Part shown: positions 5,036 to 56,121 of the stretch, one piece after another | Numbering within the stretch: position 1 is the stretch's first letter | How the letters are laid out: each line of letters begins with the position of its first letter | The notes under the pieces: model-generated | What the model saw: only the letters and a program-made list of their open reading frames with translations | Databases searched by the model: none | What the model was told of the DNA's origin: nothing | Position numbers and translations under genes: made by a program | Virus record (IMG/VR): IMGVR_UViG_3300044826_000112 | Length of the DNA: 64,000 nucleotides | Strand: one strand, 5' to 3' | DNA from: a virus

Positions 5036-5132
5036 CTCTCCTTTTCAATTTTCAGCATATAGCTCCGGTATAAGTACTACGTAGAGGAGGATATACCCTC
5101 CACTTTCTATTACTCACCACCAGGAGACTATC

Positions 5133-5411
5133 ATGTCTACACTTCCGGATACCTCGAACATGGTCATGATGACCGTGAATGATCTCATTGCCTTGCAAGA
5201 GAAAGCTGAAGACAAGCCGAAAGAATACTCCGTCGGAGATGCCATCGGCGGCATCCTCGGGGTTGCTCTGATCGGCGGAGGTCTGTACCTCGCCTGCTCT
5301 GGTCTGAACTCCAGCATGAGCAAAGACCGCCAGTACACCAAAGACATGGAACACGAAGTTAATGATCTTCGTACCCGTCTGGAAGCCCTCAAACAAGCCA
5401 CAGGTAAATAA
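5133..5411 (+). CDS. Small membrane protein, paralog 1
   Basis: One TM helix; C-terminal NDLRTRLEALKQATGK. Confidence 0.75.
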   Translation: MSTLPDTSNMVMMTVNDLIALQEKAEDKPKEYSVGDAIGGILGVALIGGGLYLACSGLNSSMSKDRQYTKDMEHEVNDLRTRLEALKQATGK

Positions 5412-5413
5412 TC

Positions 5414-5695
5414 ATGGAACTGAAACTCGAGAATGACTTCCTGGCGTTGGTAAATGCTGACCGCTATCAGGAACTGAAAGAACAAGCCGCTGCCAATGAG
5501 AACGCCTCTCAGAGCGTGCTGGAAACTACCCTGCAGGTTGCCACTGGTGCGATCATCGTGGGTGCCATCGGGTACATGGGTTATGCAGTGCATGACTCCA
5601 TCAAGCAATCCGAGAAGCGTTCTGAACTGCGTCGTGAAAAGAACGACCTGGCAGACCGTCTGGCAGAACTCAAGCGGAAAACCGAGAAGGAATAA
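5414..5695 (+). CDS. Small membrane protein, paralog 2
   Basis: TM helix; C-terminal NDLADRLAELKRKTEKE. Confidence 0.75.
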   Translation: MELKLENDFLALVNADRYQELKEQAAANENASQSVLETTLQVATGAIIVGAIGYMGYAVHDSIKQSEKRSELRREKNDLADRLAELKRKTEKE

Positions 5696-5698
5696 GTC

Positions 5699-5962
5699 AT
5701 GGAACTGGCTACTGGTAAGGTGATGATCTCCCAAGATCATCTGGAGATGATGCGGTTCGATGCGAGCCGCTCTGAGCGTAGTACTACTGCGGCGGTCGTA
5801 TCGACTGCCGTTATGGTTGGGGCAGCGGTGGCGGTGGGTTATGTTGTCTATTCAGATGTCAAAGACGGTCGAGATCACAGGGCCCGGATGGAAAAAATGC
5901 ACAACGAGCACGACGACCTCAAACGCCGAATCGCTGAGCTTACAAAGAAGAAGGACGCATAA
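5699..5962 (+). CDS. Small membrane protein, paralog 3
   Basis: TM helix; C-terminal DDLKRRIAELTKKKDA. Confidence 0.75.
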   Translation: MELATGKVMISQDHLEMMRFDASRSERSTTAAVVSTAVMVGAAVAVGYVVYSDVKDGRDHRARMEKMHNEHDDLKRRIAELTKKKDA

Positions 5963-7092: not shown

Positions 7093-8415
7093 ATGAACAT
7101 TAATCTCAAGAAACTGCTCGGTATTGGTGCAGCTGGTCTGCTCGGTGCTGTCATCCTCGTCTACGGTCTGTTCGGCTGGATCTACGTAGCTGGCGGTGAG
7201 TATGCCCGAATTCAGAAGCCTGATGGCTCCTATGAATGGCACGTCACCAACGGCTTCAAGGTGAAGACTCCGTTCCTGGATCGCTACGAGATCTTCAACC
7301 AGTACAACACCATCGACATGACCGATGGCGAGAACCCTACTGCAACGATCGATCTGCCGTTGCACAAGGTTAACTTCAACGATACCTACACCATGGATAT
7401 CGGCGTAACTGCCCGCTACTCCTTGATGCCGGATCCGGAGAAGCTGGAAATCATGTACCAGGCGAACAAGACCAACAAGGCCTTGGTTGCCAGCACCATG
7501 GTGCCGAACCTGCGTAACCTGTTGAGCCAGACTGCCAACCAGTTCCGCGGTGAGGACTACCTCCAGGGTGGTCAGAACGAGTTCCAAGCTCGTCTTTACT
7601 TCCAAGCTGAGAATGGCCTGTACGTTACCGAGCGTGTTAAGCGTGAAGTGGACGTTGAATCTGGCTACTCTGCCGACGTGAACGCTTCTGCTAACGCCGA
7701 AGGTACCAAGCAGACCAAGGCTATGGCCTGGGTTGTGGACATCGTTCGCGATGATCAAGGTAAGCCGATCACTCAAGAGAGCCAGCTGGCCAAGTTCGGC
7801 GTCATGCTGGATCTGATTGAGATCAACAAGTTCATTCCGGATCCCGATCTGGAAGCCTTCATGACTCAAAAGCGTGCCAAGATCCGTGAACGTGCCGGTA
7901 TCGTTGAAGACCAGCGTAACGCTCGTGAAGCTCAAGTAACTGCCCGCCTGATGGGTGAGAAAGAGCGTATCGAAGAGCGTAACAAGGCTCTGAAAGCTAA
8001 AGACCGTGCCGTTATTACCGAATCCCAGCAGGTAGCAGTTGAACAAGAACGTGCCAAGCTGGAAATCGTTAAGAAGGACAAGGAACTGAAGATCGCTCAG
8101 GCGAACGAAGGTATCCAAAAGGCCAACTACGAGGCTGCCAAGTATGAAGCTCTGGCTATCAAAGAGACCGGCTTGGCCGAAGCTCAGGTAGAAGACGCCA
8201 AGTATAAGGCTAAAGATCGTCAGCTCTACATGAAAGAGCTGGAGCTGGAAAACAACAAGCACCTGTACAATGCTCTGCCGGCCCTCAAGGTCCAGATGCC
8301 TCAGTACGTGCAGATGGGTGGCCAGAGTGGCATGAACAGCAACCTGGAAGCTATGTCCTCTCTCAAGCTGATGGAAGGCTTGGGTATGAGTACTCCAGCG
8401 ACTCCTGCCAAGTAA
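7093..8415 (+). CDS. SPFH/band-7 domain membrane protein
   Basis: N-terminal TM, GFKVKTPF segment, long Ala/Glu/Lys coiled-coil C-terminus. Confidence 0.75.
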   Translation: MNINLKKLLGIGAAGLLGAVILVYGLFGWIYVAGGEYARIQKPDGSYEWHVTNGFKVKTPFLDRYEIFNQYNTIDMTDGENPTATIDLPLHKVNFNDTYTMDIGVTARYSLMPDPEKLEIMYQANKTNKALVASTMVPNLRNLLSQTANQFRGEDYLQGGQNEFQARLYFQAENGLYVTERVKREVDVESGYSADVNASANAEGTKQTKAMAWVVDIVRDDQGKPITQESQLAKFGVMLDLIEINKFIPDPDLEAFMTQKRAKIRERAGIVEDQRNAREAQVTARLMGEKERIEERNKALKAKDRAVITESQQVAVEQERAKLEIVKKDKELKIAQANEGIQKANYEAAKYEALAIKETGLAEAQVEDAKYKAKDRQLYMKELELENNKHLYNALPALKVQMPQYVQMGGQSGMNSNLEAMSSLKLMEGLGMSTPATPAK

Positions 8416-8468
8416 GGCAGACTAAAGGCCCTCTCCGGAGGGCCTTTTCTTTTACCTAAGGAGTAGGT

Positions 8469-8654
8469 ATGGAGATTTTCTTAGAGGTAATCGCTCTGAT
8501 GGGACTCTTGTCTGTTGCGATAATCGCCTACATAGTCGGCTTAGTGGTCGCAATGGTGACGGAGGAGCTGCTATTGGGAGGAGCTGCGTTCGTCGGAGTA
8601 GTTGTTGTTGCGTATTACTTCTGGCAATACCTCTCAACAACGGTGGCATCTTAA
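8469..8654 (+). CDS. Small 2-TM membrane protein
   Basis: AAGGAG RBS; highly hydrophobic 61 aa. Confidence 0.65.
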   Translation: MEIFLEVIALMGLLSVAIIAYIVGLVVAMVTEELLLGGAAFVGVVVVAYYFWQYLSTTVAS

Positions 8655-8669
8655 CGGTATAAGTAAGTT

Positions 8670-8752
8670 AGAGATGTGATAGCTGTAGATCCTGTACGAC
8701 AGATTTGGGCCACTTGGCCGCCCGGCTTACGCAAATTCCCCGGGTTTTTTTA
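8670..8752 (+). ncRNA. Putative small ncRNA
   Basis: Own promoter motif (8656), three hairpins, GC stem followed by a U-run, no credible ORF. Confidence 0.35.
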
Positions 8753-8784
8753 CTATCGCTGAGCGATTCGGGTATAAGTACTAT

Positions 8785-9380
8785 GTGCCAGAGGAAGCGT
8801 ATAACTCTGACACTCTCGACCGCAAGAATCAGACTCCGTCTACTCTGCAGATGCCCGCCAAGCGTCAATGCAGAATCCCATCGCTAGCGGTCGAGAGTTT
8901 CAAAAGGAATGAAAAACGTGAAGAACTCGCAAATAAGGAGTCGGAATCGTGCAGGTCGCAAATCTAGGAACTATCACCGGTGAAACTGCAGTATTAACCG
9001 GGTGTCTGAACCTAGAAGGCGACTTCGCCATACAGGCTGAGGATGGTGCATTCCTCAACTTCTTTCCAGTGCACTACCCGGACGGGTATGTACGTAAGAA
9101 CTGGTCCGTAGAATTTCGCACCGACGGCTGGTATTTACATACATCATGTTCGGTTTTGAATGGCAAGGTTGAGTGTCCATTTAAAGCACAGCTCTGTATG
9201 GAGTTGGTTCGAGGCTCATTGGAATGGACAAAGGGTCTAAGGTTAATCTCAAGGATTTGCCGAGGGGATATCAGTAAGATCACAACTACTATGAGGATGC
9301 TTCAAAATGCAGGCTTAATCACGGGTACTAATCGGGAAGAATAACAACACCACTCATGGGGGCTCGCACAGGCCCCCATA
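8785..9380 (+). ncRNA. Putative large structured ncRNA
   Basis: Promoter motif at 8771; dense nested helices including 12-bp 8812-8823/8887-8898; final GC hairpin 9356-9379. Confidence 0.5.
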
Positions 9381-9399
9381 TCAATCCAAAGGAGACAGT

Positions 9400-10014
9400 A
9401 TGTCTAAAGCACTAGACCCGATTTCTTTAGCTATCGCGAAAGCCTCGTGGTGGCATGGCGAACAGAAACGCAAGTACACCAACGATGACTACATCGTTCA
9501 CCCTATTGAAGTCATGAACTTCCTAGCCTTGTTTACTCAGGACGAGGCAGTCATGGTGGCAGCCATCCTGCACGACGTAGTAGAAGATACCCCCGCCACC
9601 GTTCAGGAAGTCGAAGCTATCTTCGGTGAGGACGTAGCCAAACTGGTATTCGGCATGTCGGAACCTGAAGTACCGGCAGGTACCAACCGCGGGGAGCGGA
9701 AGGAAATCTACCGCCTACATCTGGAGAAGCAATGCTGGCGGACCAAGATGATCAAGTTTGGGGATATCTACTCGAACACCAAAGATATCGCTATGCACGA
9801 TCCTGACTTTGCTGTAGTCTACTTGGCCGAAATCCAGCGTACTATCAACTCGATCGATGATAACCGTATCCCGCTCCTGCTCCGCCAAATGGTCAAAGAG
9901 CAGGTCAAGCTGGCTAAGCTGTACGTTGATCAGTTCCAGGCCAACAAGAAGTTGGTCAAGAAGCTGAGCAATATCAGAACTATTACCGAAACCATCAAAG
10001 GAGAACTGCTATGA
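9400..10014 (+). CDS. RelA/SpoT-type HD hydrolase (small alarmone hydrolase/Mesh1-like)
   Basis: HGEQKRK...YIVHP, AAILHDVVEDT, FGEDVAKLV, IKFGD..SN. Confidence 0.85.
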   Translation: MSKALDPISLAIAKASWWHGEQKRKYTNDDYIVHPIEVMNFLALFTQDEAVMVAAILHDVVEDTPATVQEVEAIFGEDVAKLVFGMSEPEVPAGTNRGERKEIYRLHLEKQCWRTKMIKFGDIYSNTKDIAMHDPDFAVVYLAEIQRTINSIDDNRIPLLLRQMVKEQVKLAKLYVDQFQANKKLVKKLSNIRTITETIKGELL

Positions 10015-11600
10015 AGAACTATCTGAACAACGCTCTTGGTCGTGCCCACCTGGCTAACGTAGAAGGCGTGGACGTCAAACTTCCCGGCCAAGTACGTACT
10101 CACGGCGGTGGTTTCGCCTTCGAGATCACTCCTGAAGTGCTGCTCGAACGCTTCCTGATCCTGGGTACCACTACCTCTCAGTACGTCGGTCCAGACAAGC
10201 TGGCAGTAGACGCTCTCGGCCGTCTGATGCCGCACATCGCTCTGAACCCGGTGACCGTGGCTCGTACCGCGGTAGAAGCCGTGGAGCAGAACCGTGTGCT
10301 GTCAAAGGTACCTGCTCTTTTCGTTTACGCTACAGCTCACACTGTGGCCACCTCTGGTGAACACCGTCGTGCCATCGCTCTGATGCTGCCTCGTATCGTC
10401 AACACCTTCTCCGACCTTCAGACCCTACTGGGTTTCGTAGCGAACACTCATAACAAGGGTATCGCTACCAGCTTGGTCAAGGCATGCCGTCGCTACCTGT
10501 ACAACATGCCGATCGACAAGATGATCAACCAGGCTCTGAAGTACCGTAAGCGTGCCGGCTGGGCAGTTCTGGACATGCTGCGTGTCATCCACCCTGTGCC
10601 GAAGGATAACGACCAGAACTTCCTGTACGGTTACATCGTGGAGAACGATGAAGCCCGTGCAGAAGCTTGCCGTCGCTTCCCGATGGTAGCAGCCTTCGAA
10701 GCTGCCAAGGTGCTGGATGATCACAACCTGATCGTCAAGCTGATCAAGGACAACGGTCTGACTTGGGAGCACGTACCTACCGAGCACCTGAACAACAAGT
10801 GGGTTTGGAAGGCTCTGCTGCCCAACCTGCCGATGACCGCTCTGATCCGTAACCTGCCGAAGATCTCTTCTGTAGGTGCGATCGATGACACCTTGTCTCT
10901 GGACATCGTGCTGGACAAGCTGAAGCCGGAGATCGTGGCAAAGGCTAAGGTTCACCCCTTCCGTCTTTACCTGGCATGGTACGGCTATGGCCAAGGCGGC
11001 AACCGCAACATGTCCTGGACTCCTAATCAGCGTATCCTCGCTGCTCTGGAGACCTGCCTGTATGCGGCATTCGCCAACGTAGAGGTGAAGGGTAAGGTGT
11101 GCATCGGCTCTGACATCTCAGGCTCTATGTGGTGGGATGACTCTCGCATCAACCGTACTGGTCCGTATGCAGGCGATGCAGCCGGCATGCTGGCAGCCAC
11201 CTTCAAGGCAGCTAATCCGGAAACTGACGTGTTCTACTTCTCCGGCCAGCTGGTCAAGGCGGCGTTCGACCCGATGTCTTTGAAGTCGGTCAACATCGAC
11301 ATGCACAAGCATCACATGGGTAGCACCAACCCAGGTTTGCTGATCTCCAAGGCCATCAAGGATAAGGTCAGATACGATGCCTTCATCGTCCTGACTGATA
11401 ATGACGTGAACAGTGGTCGTCACTCCCAGCAACTGCTGGAGACCTACCGTGCCACCGTCAATCCGAAGGCCAAGCTGATCGTCGTCGGTATGACTGCGAA
11501 CAACTTCTCCATCTCCAGCCCGGATGACGTCCTGTCTATGGACATCGCCGGTATGGACGCAGGGATCATGACTGCGATCGAGAAGTTCATCGCAATGTAA
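10011..11600 (+). CDS. rsr: Ro60/Rsr TROVE-vWA RNA-binding protein
   Basis: GGFAF..LERFLILG, KYRKRAGW..DMLR..HP, LTWEHVP, LPMTALIRNL, DISGSM (MIDAS), FIVLTDND, AGMD. Confidence 0.92.
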   Translation: MKNYLNNALGRAHLANVEGVDVKLPGQVRTHGGGFAFEITPEVLLERFLILGTTTSQYVGPDKLAVDALGRLMPHIALNPVTVARTAVEAVEQNRVLSKVPALFVYATAHTVATSGEHRRAIALMLPRIVNTFSDLQTLLGFVANTHNKGIATSLVKACRRYLYNMPIDKMINQALKYRKRAGWAVLDMLRVIHPVPKDNDQNFLYGYIVENDEARAEACRRFPMVAAFEAAKVLDDHNLIVKLIKDNGLTWEHVPTEHLNNKWVWKALLPNLPMTALIRNLPKISSVGAIDDTLSLDIVLDKLKPEIVAKAKVHPFRLYLAWYGYGQGGNRNMSWTPNQRILAALETCLYAAFANVEVKGKVCIGSDISGSMWWDDSRINRTGPYAGDAAGMLAATFKAANPETDVFYFSGQLVKAAFDPMSLKSVNIDMHKHHMGSTNPGLLISKAIKDKVRYDAFIVLTDNDVNSGRHSQQLLETYRATVNPKAKLIVVGMTANNFSISSPDDVLSMDIAGMDAGIMTAIEKFIAM

Positions 11601-11634
11601 TTCAACATTTGGGGTATTACGGGTATAAATATTA

Positions 11635-12149
11635 TGTGGTGAGGTATCTTACTCTTAAGTAGAGAGGAGGTAACCTCCTCACTCCGTAGTACCCCTCCGG
11701 GGCGGATCCTGGCGGATCCAACTCGGCGTTATGCTCACCAAGCGACGTACAGTATGTTCGACAAGTGTTGAACTGCAAGAGGTAACCTCTTGACTCGTTC
11801 TTCCAGGCGCCGCTCCGGGCTTCGCCCTACGCTCTGCCTGGAGTATCTATAGATTGGATCTAGCATCCGCGAGTGTACGTTAGTACCAACCACCAGAGGT
11901 AACTTTGGGAATACCAAGCGAGGAGGCTACCTCCTCATTCTGTTAAACCCGCAGTCGGCGTACAGTCCCAATCACTGTACCGCCTTCGCATGCTCTGGTT
12001 GATGCTGTGGCATCACGAGTAGTCTGTAGTATATGGACTTAGTTCCGTGGGGAGGTAACCTCCCTACTCCATTACTTCGCGTATTTGCACAGAAGTGCAA
12101 AGTACGCATGTACAGACCATAACCAAAAGAGAGTCCAACTCTCTTTTTT
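11635..12149 (+). ncRNA. Putative Ro60-associated structured ncRNA with repeated hairpins
   Basis: Promoter motif at 11622, no plausible + strand ORF, repeated GAGG-TAA-CCTC hairpins, terminator 12125-12149. Confidence 0.65.
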
Positions 12150-12164
12150 ACTTGGAGATTAGCC

Positions 12165-12716
12165 ATGGACCTATTCCTCGGGGTTGACCCGGGTTGGAAG
12201 AACCTCGGATGGTGCGTCTCGACAATCGATGGGGAACCTCAATTGTTCGGGACAATGAACCCTTCCGAGTATGAGTTGGGCACGGTGCCTAAGCTCATCT
12301 TAGATAGTCTCGGCAGCAAGGCGAAAAACCTGAAAGGTATTGCCATGGAGCGGTACGTCTTTTATGATGGCCGCTACAACGCTGACAGTGAGCACATCCT
12401 CATGGTTACGGGACAGTTCCAGTACATGGCTGCCTCGTTGGGGATGGAGATCAAGATGTTCCGAGCTATTGACTGGAAGACTACGCTAGCCAAGGTCTTG
12501 TTCAAGTCCAATGGCTGGCAGAATCCTTCTGATTCGTTCGACAAAGTGTTCTCAATTGCAGCTGCTAAAGAGGCAACTGGAATGGAATTCAAAGTCGACC
12601 ACGTGGCGGACGCAGGGTGCCTCGCATACCTCGCAGGACGCTACCAGAAGGCGTTGACGGCTGCTGCCCTAGGCAGTGGTCTAGGTAAGACTAAATGCTC
12701 TCAGAAACGCTCCTAG
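12165..12716 (+). CDS. RuvC-like Holliday junction resolvase
   Basis: LGVDPGWKNLGW, IAME, WK, DHVADA acidic catalytic residues. Confidence 0.8.
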   Translation: MDLFLGVDPGWKNLGWCVSTIDGEPQLFGTMNPSEYELGTVPKLILDSLGSKAKNLKGIAMERYVFYDGRYNADSEHILMVTGQFQYMAASLGMEIKMFRAIDWKTTLAKVLFKSNGWQNPSDSFDKVFSIAAAKEATGMEFKVDHVADAGCLAYLAGRYQKALTAAALGSGLGKTKCSQKRS

Positions 12717-17149: not shown

Positions 17150-17214
17150 TCATGGTATAAGTACTGTGTAGGAGTCTGACCTACGAAATCAAATAACTAT
17201 ACAGGAATACTGTC

Positions 17215-17364
17215 ATGCAAACTCAAGTTGTACAAATCGCTGCTAGTAAGCTGGTCCACATGTCAATCGAAGAGATCGAAGAGATCAATGCCATGGAAGG
17301 TGTCGAAAGCATGAGCCAGCTGGTTCGCAAAGTAGAGGCTGAGCAGTATAAGCTCGATGCGTAA
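17215..17364 (+). CDS. Small hypothetical protein (MQTQVVQIAASK...)
   Basis: 49-aa ORF between promoter motif 17154 and a hairpin; absent from the ORF track. Confidence 0.55.
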   Translation: MQTQVVQIAASKLVHMSIEEIEEINAMEGVESMSQLVRKVEAEQYKLDA

Positions 17365-17452
17365 TCCAGTAGACCGGGGTCAACATTGATCCCGGTCAAA
17401 TCTTCCTTTTCTTTTTTCCCTATACTTACTCCCGATTTTCCGGAGAATCCAT

Positions 17453-19309
17453 ATGTCCATGATCAGACTAACCCCCGACCAACTCAAGCAGATGGTCCAG
17501 AACTCTATTGACTATCGTCAAGCCCAGAACGCCGCCACCGGCTCCAAACTGGATGCCAACGCCAACGTATCAGTCAAGAACGTAGCGACCGAAGAAGTGG
17601 AGCTCGTCAAAGACTTCCTCCTGCAGCTCAACCGTACTCGCGTAAGTGCTGCTATCCAGGAATTGTACGGCACTCGCGACGCCCAACAGTACCTGGAAGA
17701 CCTTGGTGATCACTTCATCTATACCCACGATGAAACCTCTATCAAACCCTACTGCACCTCGATCTCCATGTATCCGTTCGTACTGAATGGTCTCAAGGGT
17801 CTGGGTGGAGATACCACTGCTCCTAAGCATCTGCGTACCTTCGTAGGTGGCTTCATCAACCTCCTGCATGCCATTGCCAGCCAGTTCGCTGGTGCCGTGG
17901 CCACTGTAGAATTCCTTACCTACTTCGATCACTTTGCTCGTATGGAGTATGGCCAGGGCTACTCGAATGCCTTCGACCCCAAGAGCCTCAACTATGACTC
18001 TATTCAGGCTCAAGAGATCCGCAAGGACATCTACGAGCACTTTGCCCACGTGATCTACACCATCAACCAGCCGGCTGCGAACCGCGGCTATCAGGCCATC
18101 TTCTGGAACATCACAGTATTCGACCAAGGCTACTTCGAGAGCATGTTCGAAGGCTTTGTGTTCCCCGATCTGGACCGTCCGAACTGGGCATCTACCTCTG
18201 TGCTCCAGCGTGAATTCCTGCGTTGGTTCAACAAAGAGCGTGAGCGTGCAGTCCTGACCTTCCCGGTCGTAACTGCTGCCCTGTTGAATGATGGTACTGA
18301 CTTCCGTGATCTGGATACTGCAAAGTTCCTGGCCAAGGAGATGTCTGAAGGTAACTCCTTCTTCATCTACACCTCCAAGTCCGCGGATAGCTTGGCCTCT
18401 TGCTGCCGTCTGCGTAACGAGGTGACTGACAACGTGTTCTCCCATAGCCTGGGCGCTGGCGGTGTCATGACTGGTTCTCTGAACGTCATCACCATCAACA
18501 TGAACCGTTTGGCCCAAGCAGGTAGCCGTGAGCTCAACATTCAAGGGTTCCACGCCGCTCTGAAACGTCAGGTCCAGCAGGTACACAAGTACCAGCACGG
18601 CCACCTGAAGATCTACCAAGAATACTTGGCCCAAGGGATGCTGACCGCGTACGACGCAGGCTTCATCTCTATGGAGAAGCAGTTCCTGACCGTAGGCCTG
18701 AATGGTCTGGTAGAGGCTGCAGAGTTCTTCAACATCCGCCCTGACAACAACCCTCTGTATCGCAAGTTCGTACAAGACACTCTCAAGGTCATCTATGATG
18801 AAAACCGTGAGTTCTCCGCACGTACTGGCCTGAAGGTGAACACTGAATTCGTGCCGGCTGAGAGCCTGGGCGTCAAGAACGCCATGTGGGACCAGAAAGA
18901 CGGTTTGAAGGTCATGCGGGATTGCTACAACAGCTACTTCTATCGCGTGGAAGACGAGAACCTCTCTCCTCTGGATAAGCTGAATCTGTTCGATCAGGAT
19001 ATGACCAAGTACCTGGACGGCGGTTCTGCCCTCCACCTCAACCTGGAAGATCTCCTGGACGAGGAACGCTGGATGGGTATGATGCGTTGTGCCATCGTGG
19101 TCGGTGTGCAGTACTTCTGCTTTAACGTGAAGTCCACTATCTGTAACGACTGTGGCTTCATCGACAAGCGTACTCGCCAGTGCTGCGAGAAGTGCGGCTC
19201 CCATGACGTCGATGGTGCCACTCGAGTGATTGGCTACTTGAAACGGGTGAGCAACTTCTCGAAAGCTCGACAGGAAGAGCATTCCAGAAGAGTCTATTCC
19301 CGGGTATAA
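17453..19309 (+). CDS. nrdD: Class III (anaerobic) ribonucleotide reductase
   Basis: IYTHDE..PYC, TFPV, SCCRL, VPAESL, CxxC...CxxC, glycyl-radical RVIGYL. Confidence 0.95.
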   Translation: MSMIRLTPDQLKQMVQNSIDYRQAQNAATGSKLDANANVSVKNVATEEVELVKDFLLQLNRTRVSAAIQELYGTRDAQQYLEDLGDHFIYTHDETSIKPYCTSISMYPFVLNGLKGLGGDTTAPKHLRTFVGGFINLLHAIASQFAGAVATVEFLTYFDHFARMEYGQGYSNAFDPKSLNYDSIQAQEIRKDIYEHFAHVIYTINQPAANRGYQAIFWNITVFDQGYFESMFEGFVFPDLDRPNWASTSVLQREFLRWFNKERERAVLTFPVVTAALLNDGTDFRDLDTAKFLAKEMSEGNSFFIYTSKSADSLASCCRLRNEVTDNVFSHSLGAGGVMTGSLNVITINMNRLAQAGSRELNIQGFHAALKRQVQQVHKYQHGHLKIYQEYLAQGMLTAYDAGFISMEKQFLTVGLNGLVEAAEFFNIRPDNNPLYRKFVQDTLKVIYDENREFSARTGLKVNTEFVPAESLGVKNAMWDQKDGLKVMRDCYNSYFYRVEDENLSPLDKLNLFDQDMTKYLDGGSALHLNLEDLLDEERWMGMMRCAIVVGVQYFCFNVKSTICNDCGFIDKRTRQCCEKCGSHDVDGATRVIGYLKRVSNFSKARQEEHSRRVYSRV

Positions 19310-19357
19310 GAAACCTAGAGGGGCCCATATCGGGCCCTTTCTTATTGGAGAAGAGTC

Positions 19358-19594
19358 ATGACTGACCTAGCGAGAATGATGAGCAACCTTAACGGGTTGA
19401 CCTCGGAGAGACGTCTGATTGAGAACCGGATCCTCACTGCTAACAGTGACATCCTTGCTGCTATCAAAGAGAGCGGCTTGACCAGGGTTCAATTAGAGAT
19501 GATGCCTGAGTTCCGGACGTACGCCGGCTGCGTACTCATCCAGACTGCCTTCCAACCTAAACCACCAAAGGATAACTATGAGCTCGGAGCTTAA
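19358..19594 (+). CDS. Hypothetical protein
   Basis: GGAG RBS after a terminator. Confidence 0.6.
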   Translation: MTDLARMMSNLNGLTSERRLIENRILTANSDILAAIKESGLTRVQLEMMPEFRTYAGCVLIQTAFQPKPPKDNYELGA

Positions 19595-54761: not shown

Positions 54762-55250
54762 TTGGCTAAACCAGCAATCCCGCTACCACGACTACTGAGA
54801 GGTGGTTCCGCAATGGTCCGGAACGTAAAGCCATCTCACGCAACCGATTCTTTAGTCCTGAAGCCGAACTACTATGTGGTCACGATTCAGGAAGACGGCT
54901 GCCCGACATTCTTCTATTACCCCTGCCGGGTAGTGGAGATGTCTGGCGGGCGAGTAAGAATCACCCGTTATCCACCCGTTGCTTTACCTGGAATCCTAAT
55001 GCTGTCCCGGAAGAGAGTCTACCTTGTCGACAAGGCTGACTATCAACGAGGCGTCCTTGGCGAGAACCGCCGCGTCAAGGATATTCAAGCATTCTTCAAC
55101 TTCGTGAGTGAGAAGTATGGAACTCCAGACCAAGAAGCAGCTGCAGCAGCAGTGCAATATCCGTACGCTGCGGACGTTGACCTTCCCGACAGTCAACAAG
55201 ACTTTATCCTACGATATCTGTCGGGTACCGAAGAGTTCTGGCGGATTTAG
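54762..55250 (+). CDS. Hypothetical protein upstream of the RT
   Basis: GGAGGT RBS with TTG start; overlaps the RT 5' end. Confidence 0.6.
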   Translation: MAKPAIPLPRLLRGGSAMVRNVKPSHATDSLVLKPNYYVVTIQEDGCPTFFYYPCRVVEMSGGRVRITRYPPVALPGILMLSRKRVYLVDKADYQRGVLGENRRVKDIQAFFNFVSEKYGTPDQEAAAAAVQYPYAADVDLPDSQQDFILRYLSGTEEFWRI

Positions 55251-56121
55251 AACGCTGCACGTGCCAAGACCGCACATGAAGATCGCCCAGGCAGTGATCC
55301 TCAAGTACGTTCTGAACCACCTTAAGGTACCTGACTATCTATGGGCTTTCGAGAAAGGCAGATCGATTCCTCAGATGACACGTCTACATCTGAATAAGGA
55401 GTGGGTCCTGTCGCTGGACATCAAGAACTACTTCACCAGCATCAAGCAGGTGAACATCATGTCCATGCTGGAGTCTCACGGCATAACCGATGAGGCTGCC
55501 CGGTTGATCTCGGAGATCGTTACGTACAAATTCTTTTTGCCCCAAGGTGCGATGACCTCGCCTAAGGTAAGCAATCTGTATGCTGCGTACACGTTCGGCC
55601 CAGAGCTGGAGTCCGCTCTCAAAGAGTTGGACATAACATTCACCATCTATGCAGATGATATCACGTTCTCCTTCGACTACTCCCAAGGGCTATGGGATGG
55701 CGTCAGGGATGTGTACCAAAACGTGCTGCCAGCCGAAGACCGGATCGAGATTCCCTCGGTCGGTTGTGGCAAAGCCATCTGCACCCTACTCACAGATATG
55801 ACCAAAAAGATCCTGAACCGACATCAGCTCCGGCTGAATATGGACAAGGTGAAGGTAATGGGTCCTGGTAGACGACACTGGATCTGTGGAGTAGTAGCCA
55901 ACAGAAAACCGAATATCTCAAAGGCTCAGCGAGACTTCTTACGAGCTGTCGTTCACAACATCACTGTGAATGGATTGGAAGTTGAAGCTGCAAAAGCCGG
56001 TCGTGAACCTGGCGAGTTCCTCTCGAACATCAAAGGCCGCATCGGCTGGTATCATCAACTCAATCCTGAGCGTTCACAAAGAATGCTCGAAACCATCAAC
56101 TCAATTGGAGTGCAATCATGA
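55117..56121 (+). CDS. Retron-like reverse transcriptase
   Basis: YDICRVPKSSGGFRTLHVP, LDIKNYFTSI, LPQGAMTSPKVSN, YADDITFS, ICG at the VTG position, GRIGW. Confidence 0.9.
   Translation: MELQTKKQLQQQCNIRTLRTLTFPTVNKTLSYDICRVPKSSGGFRTLHVPRPHMKIAQAVILKYVLNHLKVPDYLWAFEKGRSIPQMTRLHLNKEWVLSLDIKNYFTSIKQVNIMSMLESHGITDEAARLISEIVTYKFFLPQGAMTSPKVSNLYAAYTFGPELESALKELDITFTIYADDITFSFDYSQGLWDGVRDVYQNVLPAEDRIEIPSVGCGKAICTLLTDMTKKILNRHQLRLNMDKVKVMGPGRRHWICGVVANRKPNISKAQRDFLRAVVHNITVNGLEVEAAKAGREPGEFLSNIKGRIGWYHQLNPERSQRMLETINSIGVQS

Follow-up and report, generated by a model that had tools for sequence, protein, structure and literature searches.

A Conserved, Covarying Leader RNA Heads a Phage Operon That Joins a RelA/SpoT-Type Hydrolase to Ro60

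Results

The interval 8771–9380 of the 64,000-nt viral sequence analyzed here (the window) is the head of an mRNA and not a single RNA gene: a putative promoter is followed by a folded leader RNA of ~165 nt, a gene for a 131-residue protein, and an intergenic hairpin, beyond which the operon continues into genes for an HD_4 hydrolase and Ro60. We hold this anatomy, taken as a whole, to be nearly certain; the coding status of the open reading frame (ORF) at 8949–9344, three helices and an invariant loop in the leader, and the synteny of the operon are direct observations. The anatomy replaces a false call made in an earlier sequence-only reading, which had taken everything downstream of the motif at 8771 for one structured non-coding RNA (ncRNA) of ~600 nt; the large-ncRNA reading is rejected, the leader being the one new structured RNA within the stretch. 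As to what the leader does, the best explanation as a whole, and one to which we give slightly better than an even chance, is that it acts in cis to gate translation of the 131aa-HD_4-Ro60 operon.

The promoter-like motif GGTATAAGTACTATGT (8771–8786, + strand) lies 3′ of an intrinsic terminator (8723–8750) and is invariant across all homologous loci. The sequence GGTATAAGTA is present in 16 copies (≤1 mismatch) in the window, compared with 2.2 expected; nearly all copies are on the + strand and intergenic, and several are followed by GGAG and a start codon within ~10 nt. On the strength of this over-representation and placement we treat it as the phage's promoter motif, as the sequence-only reading had already done for the copy at 8771, and we infer that transcription starts near 8781–8786, a position that coincides with the first helix of the leader. 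The leader itself (8783–8948) contains no credible ORF, and there is no terminator between it and the 131-aa gene (8949–9344, + strand), which is the first gene of the operon. The GTG start of this gene is preceded, 8 nt upstream, by an AAGGAG core; its ribosome-binding site AAGGAGUC (8935–8942, + strand) has an invariant UC after the GGAG core, AAGGAGTC (8935–8942) ends 6 nt before the GTG of the 131-codon frame, and an in-frame TAA at 8934 leaves no earlier start and no longer ORF. The gene is followed by an intergenic element (9347–9379, + strand), in which an invariant ACACCACUC precedes a covarying 9–11-bp GC hairpin (arms 9356–9364 and 9371–9379); across the same 11 lineages in which ACACCACUC is invariant, the sequence of the stem differs and its pairing is preserved. 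As it lacks a U tract, the element is no standard terminator, and it may act as a signal for processing or stability. A second AAGGAGA lies between the GC hairpin (9356–9379) and the next gene, which starts at 9400 and encodes a RelA/SpoT-type HD hydrolase (HD_4; Pfam E = 8e-15). The Ro60 gene is recognized in Pfam by its TROVE and vWA_Ro60 domains; the HD_4 and Ro60 genes overlap stop to start and are translationally coupled.

All homologues of this locus were obtained from Logan assemblies by protein look-ups, and they represent one clade of uncultured phages. No relatives were found among GenBank phages by blastn, in IMG/VR by either pattern or protein search, or in JGI metagenomes by pattern search. 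The gene order (SPFH, non-coding gap, 131-aa gene, HD_4, Ro60) is the same in every contig that reaches far enough, and an alignment of the upstream region shows strong conservation from the promoter motif through to the start codon. A covariance model (R1) built on eight sequences has one match in each of 19 loci (11 distinct sequences) and one match in the 175-kb genome of the phage, in which the leader is single-copy by both BLAST and the covariance model; the leader is always found at this operon. Across 11 lineages, 70 of 175 leader columns (40%) are invariant, whereas among the codons of the adjacent gene whose amino acid never changes, only 3 of 43 third positions (7%) are, which argues for selection on the RNA itself. 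Taken together with the helices described below, the comparison indicates that 8783–8948 is a conserved structured RNA selected at the RNA level.

The leader contains three helices, all on the + strand. P1, a 10-bp hairpin with a 9-nt loop at the 5′ end (8785–8794/8804–8813), has changed on both sides in 7 of its 10 pairs among the 11 distinct sequences. P2 is a long stem (8815–8823/8887–8895, plus 8825–8826/8884–8885) that closes around an internal loop and P3; 99% of its cells are paired, and four of its pairs change on both sides. P3 has an invariant base, CUGC/GCAG (8845–8848/8870–8873), surmounted by a variable, covarying upper stem (8850–8853/8863–8866) in which three of the four pairs change on both sides. 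For the three helices together, 94% of cells are paired in the 11 distinct sequences (24%–42% in controls with slid partners), and double-sided changes are seen in 14 of 29 pairs, compared with 7.9 ± 1.7 in shuffles, none of which (0 of 500) reaches 14. RNAalifold independently recovers the same P1, P2, and P3, and the minimum free energy of the first 178 nt, i.e., the leader, has a z score of −3.4 relative to shuffles. The helices that the sequence-only reading had listed are all present where it had placed them, including GTGCCAGAG/CTCTGACAC at 8785–8813, the perfect 12-bp helix ACTCTCGACCGC/GCGGTCGAGAGT (8812–8823/8887–8898) enclosing TCTGCA/TGCAGA, which is P2, the complementary pair GACTCC (8832)/GGAGTC (8937), and the helices inside 8953–9180. 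Its claim of a structured ncRNA starting after the motif at 8771 is thus partly right: a conserved, covarying RNA does begin there, and it is ~165 nt long, not ~600 nt.

Several unpaired segments of the leader are invariant or nearly so. The block UCAGACUCCGU (8829–8839, + strand), in the internal loop of P2, is invariant in all 11 distinct sequences; the other invariant unpaired blocks are a CCA in the loop of P3, a GCAGAA immediately 3′ of P3, and a GCU before the return strand of P2. Further downstream, the block (A/G)UGAAGA(A/G)CUCGC (8918–8930, + strand) is near-identical in 10 of 11 lineages and is shifted by one base in the L014 clade (AAUGAGAACUCGC); within it, GAAGA(A/G)CUCGC (8920–8930) is identical in the same proportion of lineages save for its A/G position and reads GAGAACUCGC in the L014 clade, and CUCGC is invariant in 11 of 11. 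AGG(A/G)GUC is conserved at the ribosome-binding site. An all-against-all search for columns covarying with CUCGC was swamped by phylogenetic correlation among the few lineages. When the whole window was scanned against Rfam with cmscan at gathering thresholds, only three tRNAs were found, and at E ≤ 10 there was nothing relevant in 8400–9420. We also considered the leader as coding sequence, since an open frame runs through it in L004 and L012, where genes of 151 and 180 aa were called, and rejected this on account of in-frame stops in other lineages and substitutions of the helix type.

The longest invariant unpaired block contains a hexamer, GACUCC (8832–8837, within UCAGACUCCGU), that is the exact complement of GGAGUC (8937–8942), a sequence made up of the ribosome-binding site's GGAG core and the two bases (UC) that follow it. 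The UC after the core is invariant, and the spacer from there to the start codon varies freely. The calculated energy of the GACUCC/GGAGUC duplex is −8.3 kcal/mol, a value for the duplex alone, as nested algorithms cannot score a pseudoknot, and a 6-mer complement would turn up by chance somewhere within a leader of 150 nt with a probability of ~0.04. The only partner change is an A to G in L003 and L004, which leaves a G-U pair; five of the six pairs never vary, and the pairing is thus without covariation. The possible pseudoknot raised in the sequence-only reading involves the most conserved bases of the leader. From its invariance and complementarity, we consider the GACUCC block a candidate anti-Shine-Dalgarno (anti-SD) element.

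Nested folding pairs the GACUCC and GGAGUC blocks with probabilities of 0.37–1.0 in 5 of 11 lineages. Without constraints, 5 of 11 lineages adopt the alternative nested fold as their ground state or as a major state; in constrained ensembles, it lies 4–8 kcal/mol above the P2 fold in 6 of 11. A simple two-state switch is therefore not uniformly supported, and the cost of the alternative fold in these six lineages favors the version in which the loop pairs with the SD as a pseudoknot. We also asked whether the 3′ strand of P2 pairs with GAAGARCUCG: the one variable position can pair in only 4 of 11 lineages, and a change in P2 in L012 has no matching change downstream, so that a role of this pairing as an anti-sequestor is unproven.

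Downstream of the leader, the 131-aa gene behaves throughout as coding sequence. Protein searches gave homologues with 87%, 81%, 79%, 67%, 65%, and 50% identity (P0002–P0007). The frame is open in every lineage; in L004 and L012 the start (TTG) is shifted by 2 nt, and a 2-nt deletion near the start restores the frame. Pairwise dN/dS values are 0.06–0.17 and changes fall mostly at third positions, the differences between the window and L004 being 36, 19, and 66 at first, second, and third codon positions; across the 11 lineages, 66% of second positions are invariant and 7% (9 of 126) of third positions. Judged by this pattern of substitution, 8949–9344 is a genuine protein gene under purifying selection. 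The helices predicted within it are not maintained: when the ORF's own minimum free energy structure is laid over the homologues, 33 cells are compensated and 233 disrupted, a ratio no different from that of controls with partners slid by 1–3 columns, and the stem at 8953–9025 shows a few compensations in close relatives and is gone in L004, L012, and L014. The ORF has a folding z score of −2.1, compared with −2.7 and −1.7 for two control stretches in neighboring genes. The continuous helicity that the sequence-only reading had remarked on is hence borne out for the first 178 nt, whereas from 8949 on there is no more of it than in neighboring coding sequence; among the checks that it had proposed, the folding z scores set the whole stretch (−2.8) and the leader (−3.4) apart from shuffles and the ORF on a par with its neighbors, and the weighing of dN/dS against covariation gives purifying selection and disrupted helices in the ORF and covarying helices, with 14 double-sided pairs, in the leader. 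Two of the three observations by which the sequence-only reading would have been overturned for 8949–9344, conservation with substitutions of the codon type and a lack of covariation in the helices, are thus seen. The same reading was correct that the codon usage of the ORF is unlike that of the phage's genes (−0.29 per codon, compared with +0.18 to +0.70 for other genes; GC3 of 0.48 compared with 0.53–0.70), although the correct frame scores far above the remaining two.

The 131-aa protein has no known family or fold. It has no match in Pfam, PHROGs, or the ESM Atlas features; an AF2 model (pLDDT 87.6) shows a small beta domain and three helices, for which a Foldseek search against the PDB gave no convincing structural match (best E = 0.04) and the highest Z in a wide VIA-align comparison was 5.7 over 53 residues, which is not usable. 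A C-terminal winged helix, suspected at first, was not confirmed. Outside this phage clade, the family has a single borderline relative (P0009, E = 2e-4).

Discussion

The leader behaves like the SD-sequestering riboswitches and translational operators (preQ1-II, SAM-II, ribosomal-protein leaders) and belongs to no catalogued family. It resembles them in its 5′ position, its covarying helices, its invariant unpaired junctions, the presence of a conserved stretch that is complementary to the first gene's ribosome-binding site, and the lack of a terminator before that gene; it differs in that it matches no described family, that its SD pairing shows no covariation, and that it comes from a single clade of uncultured phages. 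A structure in the 5′ UTR that is supported by covariation, by which riboswitches and cis-regulatory elements are generally recognized, is what is seen here between the promoter motif and the SD. Because the leader is continuous with the mRNA, has no terminator, and is found only before this operon, translational control by SD occlusion is the simplest reading.

In the mechanism that we propose, the promoter-like motif at 8771–8786 would start a transcript headed by the ~165-nt leader, with P1 at its 5′ end, followed by the long stem P2, in whose large internal loop the hairpin P3 would form. The UCAGACUCCGU loop would then pair with GGAGUC as a pseudoknot on the P2 fold. Alternatively, P2 might open, with its 3′ strand pairing to GAAGARCUCG and its 5′ strand to the start-codon region. 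Either form of pairing would set the frequency at which ribosomes initiate on the first gene of the operon, and the trigger might be a small molecule, a protein, or temperature. That translation is controlled through loop-SD pairing in particular is, on the sequence evidence, a proposition that we consider as apt to be right as wrong; it explains neither the invariance of CUCGC nor the conservation of an upstream start codon, which is discussed below. The more specific idea that the leader is a new phage-carried class of riboswitch, which would sense a small molecule linked to the operon, such as an alarmone handled by the HD_4 hydrolase, by way of the loop-to-SD pseudoknot, is doubtful.

The presence of Ro60 in the operon brings to mind a different role, in which the leader would be a Ro60-binding element, either an RNA of the Y-RNA kind cut from the 5′ end of the operon transcript or an operator whose Y-RNA-like stem and large internal loop Ro60 would recognize in repressing its own operon. 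The module formed by P2 and P3 (8813–8898, 86 nt) has the general shape of a Y RNA, with its large internal loop and long terminal stem, and the sequence GUCGAG(A/C)G on the 3′ strand of P2 is one mismatch away from the motif GNCGAAN0-1G proposed for bacterial Rsr (PMC4201824). The Y RNAs of M. smegmatis are processed from a precursor upstream of rsr, and the leader is found only with this Ro60 operon. More generally, the leader shares with bacterial and phage Y RNAs (YrlA/YrlB, Yrn1; Chen et al., 2014, PMC4201824) a position beside the Ro60 gene, a long stem around a large internal loop, a size of ~90–120 nt, and the near-match to the GNCGAA motif. In YrlA-type Y RNAs, however, the proposed motif is part of the terminal stem and close to the 5′ end (PMC4201824), whereas in the leader its counterpart occupies the opposite arm, the 3′ strand of P2; nor is it conserved in sequence, as it covaries with its partner and reads GAUCAGG in L012. 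The leader also differs from Y RNAs in being continuous with the mRNA and in having no tRNA-like T or D arm: there is no T-loop motif near 8771–8948 and no ARAGORN call, and neither YrlA nor Y_RNA matches at E ≤ 10 in 8400–9420. Finally, the separately promoted array at 11622–12149, on which the leader model scores only E ≈ 0.5, is a better candidate partner for Ro60. We therefore regard Ro60 binding by the leader as unlikely.

About as improbable is the proposal that the leader serves mRNA stability or processing constitutively, without switching, its 5′-terminal hairpin and compact fold shielding the mRNA from 5′-end-dependent decay, and that the match to the SD is incidental. P1 begins at the inferred 5′ end of the transcript, other copies of the promoter motif (5067, 17154, 19303) also have hairpins immediately after them, and most lineages have the P2 fold as their clear ground state, all as would be expected of such an element. 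A protective hairpin, on the other hand, needs neither eleven invariant unpaired bases nor an invariant CCA loop or invariant junctions, and the 40% of leader columns that are invariant stand against 7% of near-neutral sites.

The conserved start codon upstream of the main one invites a third explanation, according to which a short upstream ORF overlapping the main start out of frame would exert control, its translation opening or occluding the main initiation site. The upstream start codon is present in 11 of 11 lineages (GTG in the window, ATG in the other 10) and has a purine tract of the AGGA type 7–10 nt before it, and the ORF that it opens (8918–8983 in the window) is 20–23 codons long and begins 28–31 nt before the main start. 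This length is nevertheless what chance predicts for an alternative frame, the encoded peptide is not conserved, its frame relative to CUCGC shifts in L014, and the 8918–8930 block varies at the second codon position with the third fixed, a pattern of the RNA type and not of coding sequence; control of this kind is quite unlikely.

That the whole of 8771–9380 is one large ncRNA of the ROOL or GOLLD kind, or a trans template for the orphan reverse transcriptase (RT), as the sequence-only reading had suggested, can be set aside as scarcely credible in spite of the phage context and the impression of size, the z score of −2.8 for the whole stretch, and the atypical codon usage of 8949–9344, since an RNA of that kind would be expected to keep its structure over ~500–800 nt of non-coding sequence and here only ~165 nt are non-coding, the other 396 nt encoding a protein under strong purifying selection (dN/dS 0.06–0.17) with helices that fare like slid controls and a z score like that of neighboring genes, since no Rfam match was obtained for the whole window at gathering score or for 8400–9420 at E ≤ 10, and since a retron msr-msd or DGR template is expected beside its RT and, for a DGR, with a TR/VR repeat, whereas the only RVT_1 match in the window is at ~55225–55860, 46 kb away, and the single-copy leader has no second copy to make up a template/variable pair.

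The leader is thus a well-supported, uncatalogued structured RNA at the head of an unusual phage operon in which a RelA/SpoT-type hydrolase is joined to Ro60. Were it a sensor, it would reveal the circumstances in which the phage deploys a module for RNA quality control and alarmone removal, and it would also open the little-understood function of viral Ro60 to direct experiment. A second item of interest is the 131-aa protein, which lacks a known fold and whose gene invariably comes first in the operon.

Just upstream of the leader promoter, a unit of ~85 nt running from promoter to terminator (8656–8750) is kept in the homologous loci. It consists of a second copy of the promoter-like motif (8656), ~45 poorly conserved nt, a hairpin, and an intrinsic terminator (CCCGG..CCGGG plus U7), and compensatory changes in the hairpin are visible between lineages; a small RNA is one possibility for the unit, and a checkpoint for promoter-proximal termination is another. 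The stretch that separates this unit from the SPFH gene carries a hydrophobic ORF of 61 aa (8469–8654), which is 61–67 aa long in L020–L026 and missing in L001 and L014.

Directly after the Ro60 gene there is an ORF-free transcript unit of ~520 nt (11622–12149) with its own promoter motif and terminator. It contains repeated GAGG-UAA-CCUC hairpins and is conserved, with one unit fewer, in L014 (8617–9107); nothing relevant was found in Rfam at E ≤ 10 for 11500–12250. We considered the leader as a fifth unit of this array and rejected the idea, as R1 gives 4 bits (E ≈ 0.5) and shared 7-mers are at chance level. The array is more likely than the leader to be the partner RNA of Ro60.

Hairpins are also found immediately 3′ of the promoter-motif copies at 5067, 17154, and 19303, and the one at 5067 (GAGGAGG..CCCTCC) resembles the hairpins of the Ro60 array. 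These copies open stretches of 275–690 nt (5067–5760, 17154–17453, and 19303–19578) without a + strand ORF of at least 100 aa, which may be further long leaders or ncRNAs.
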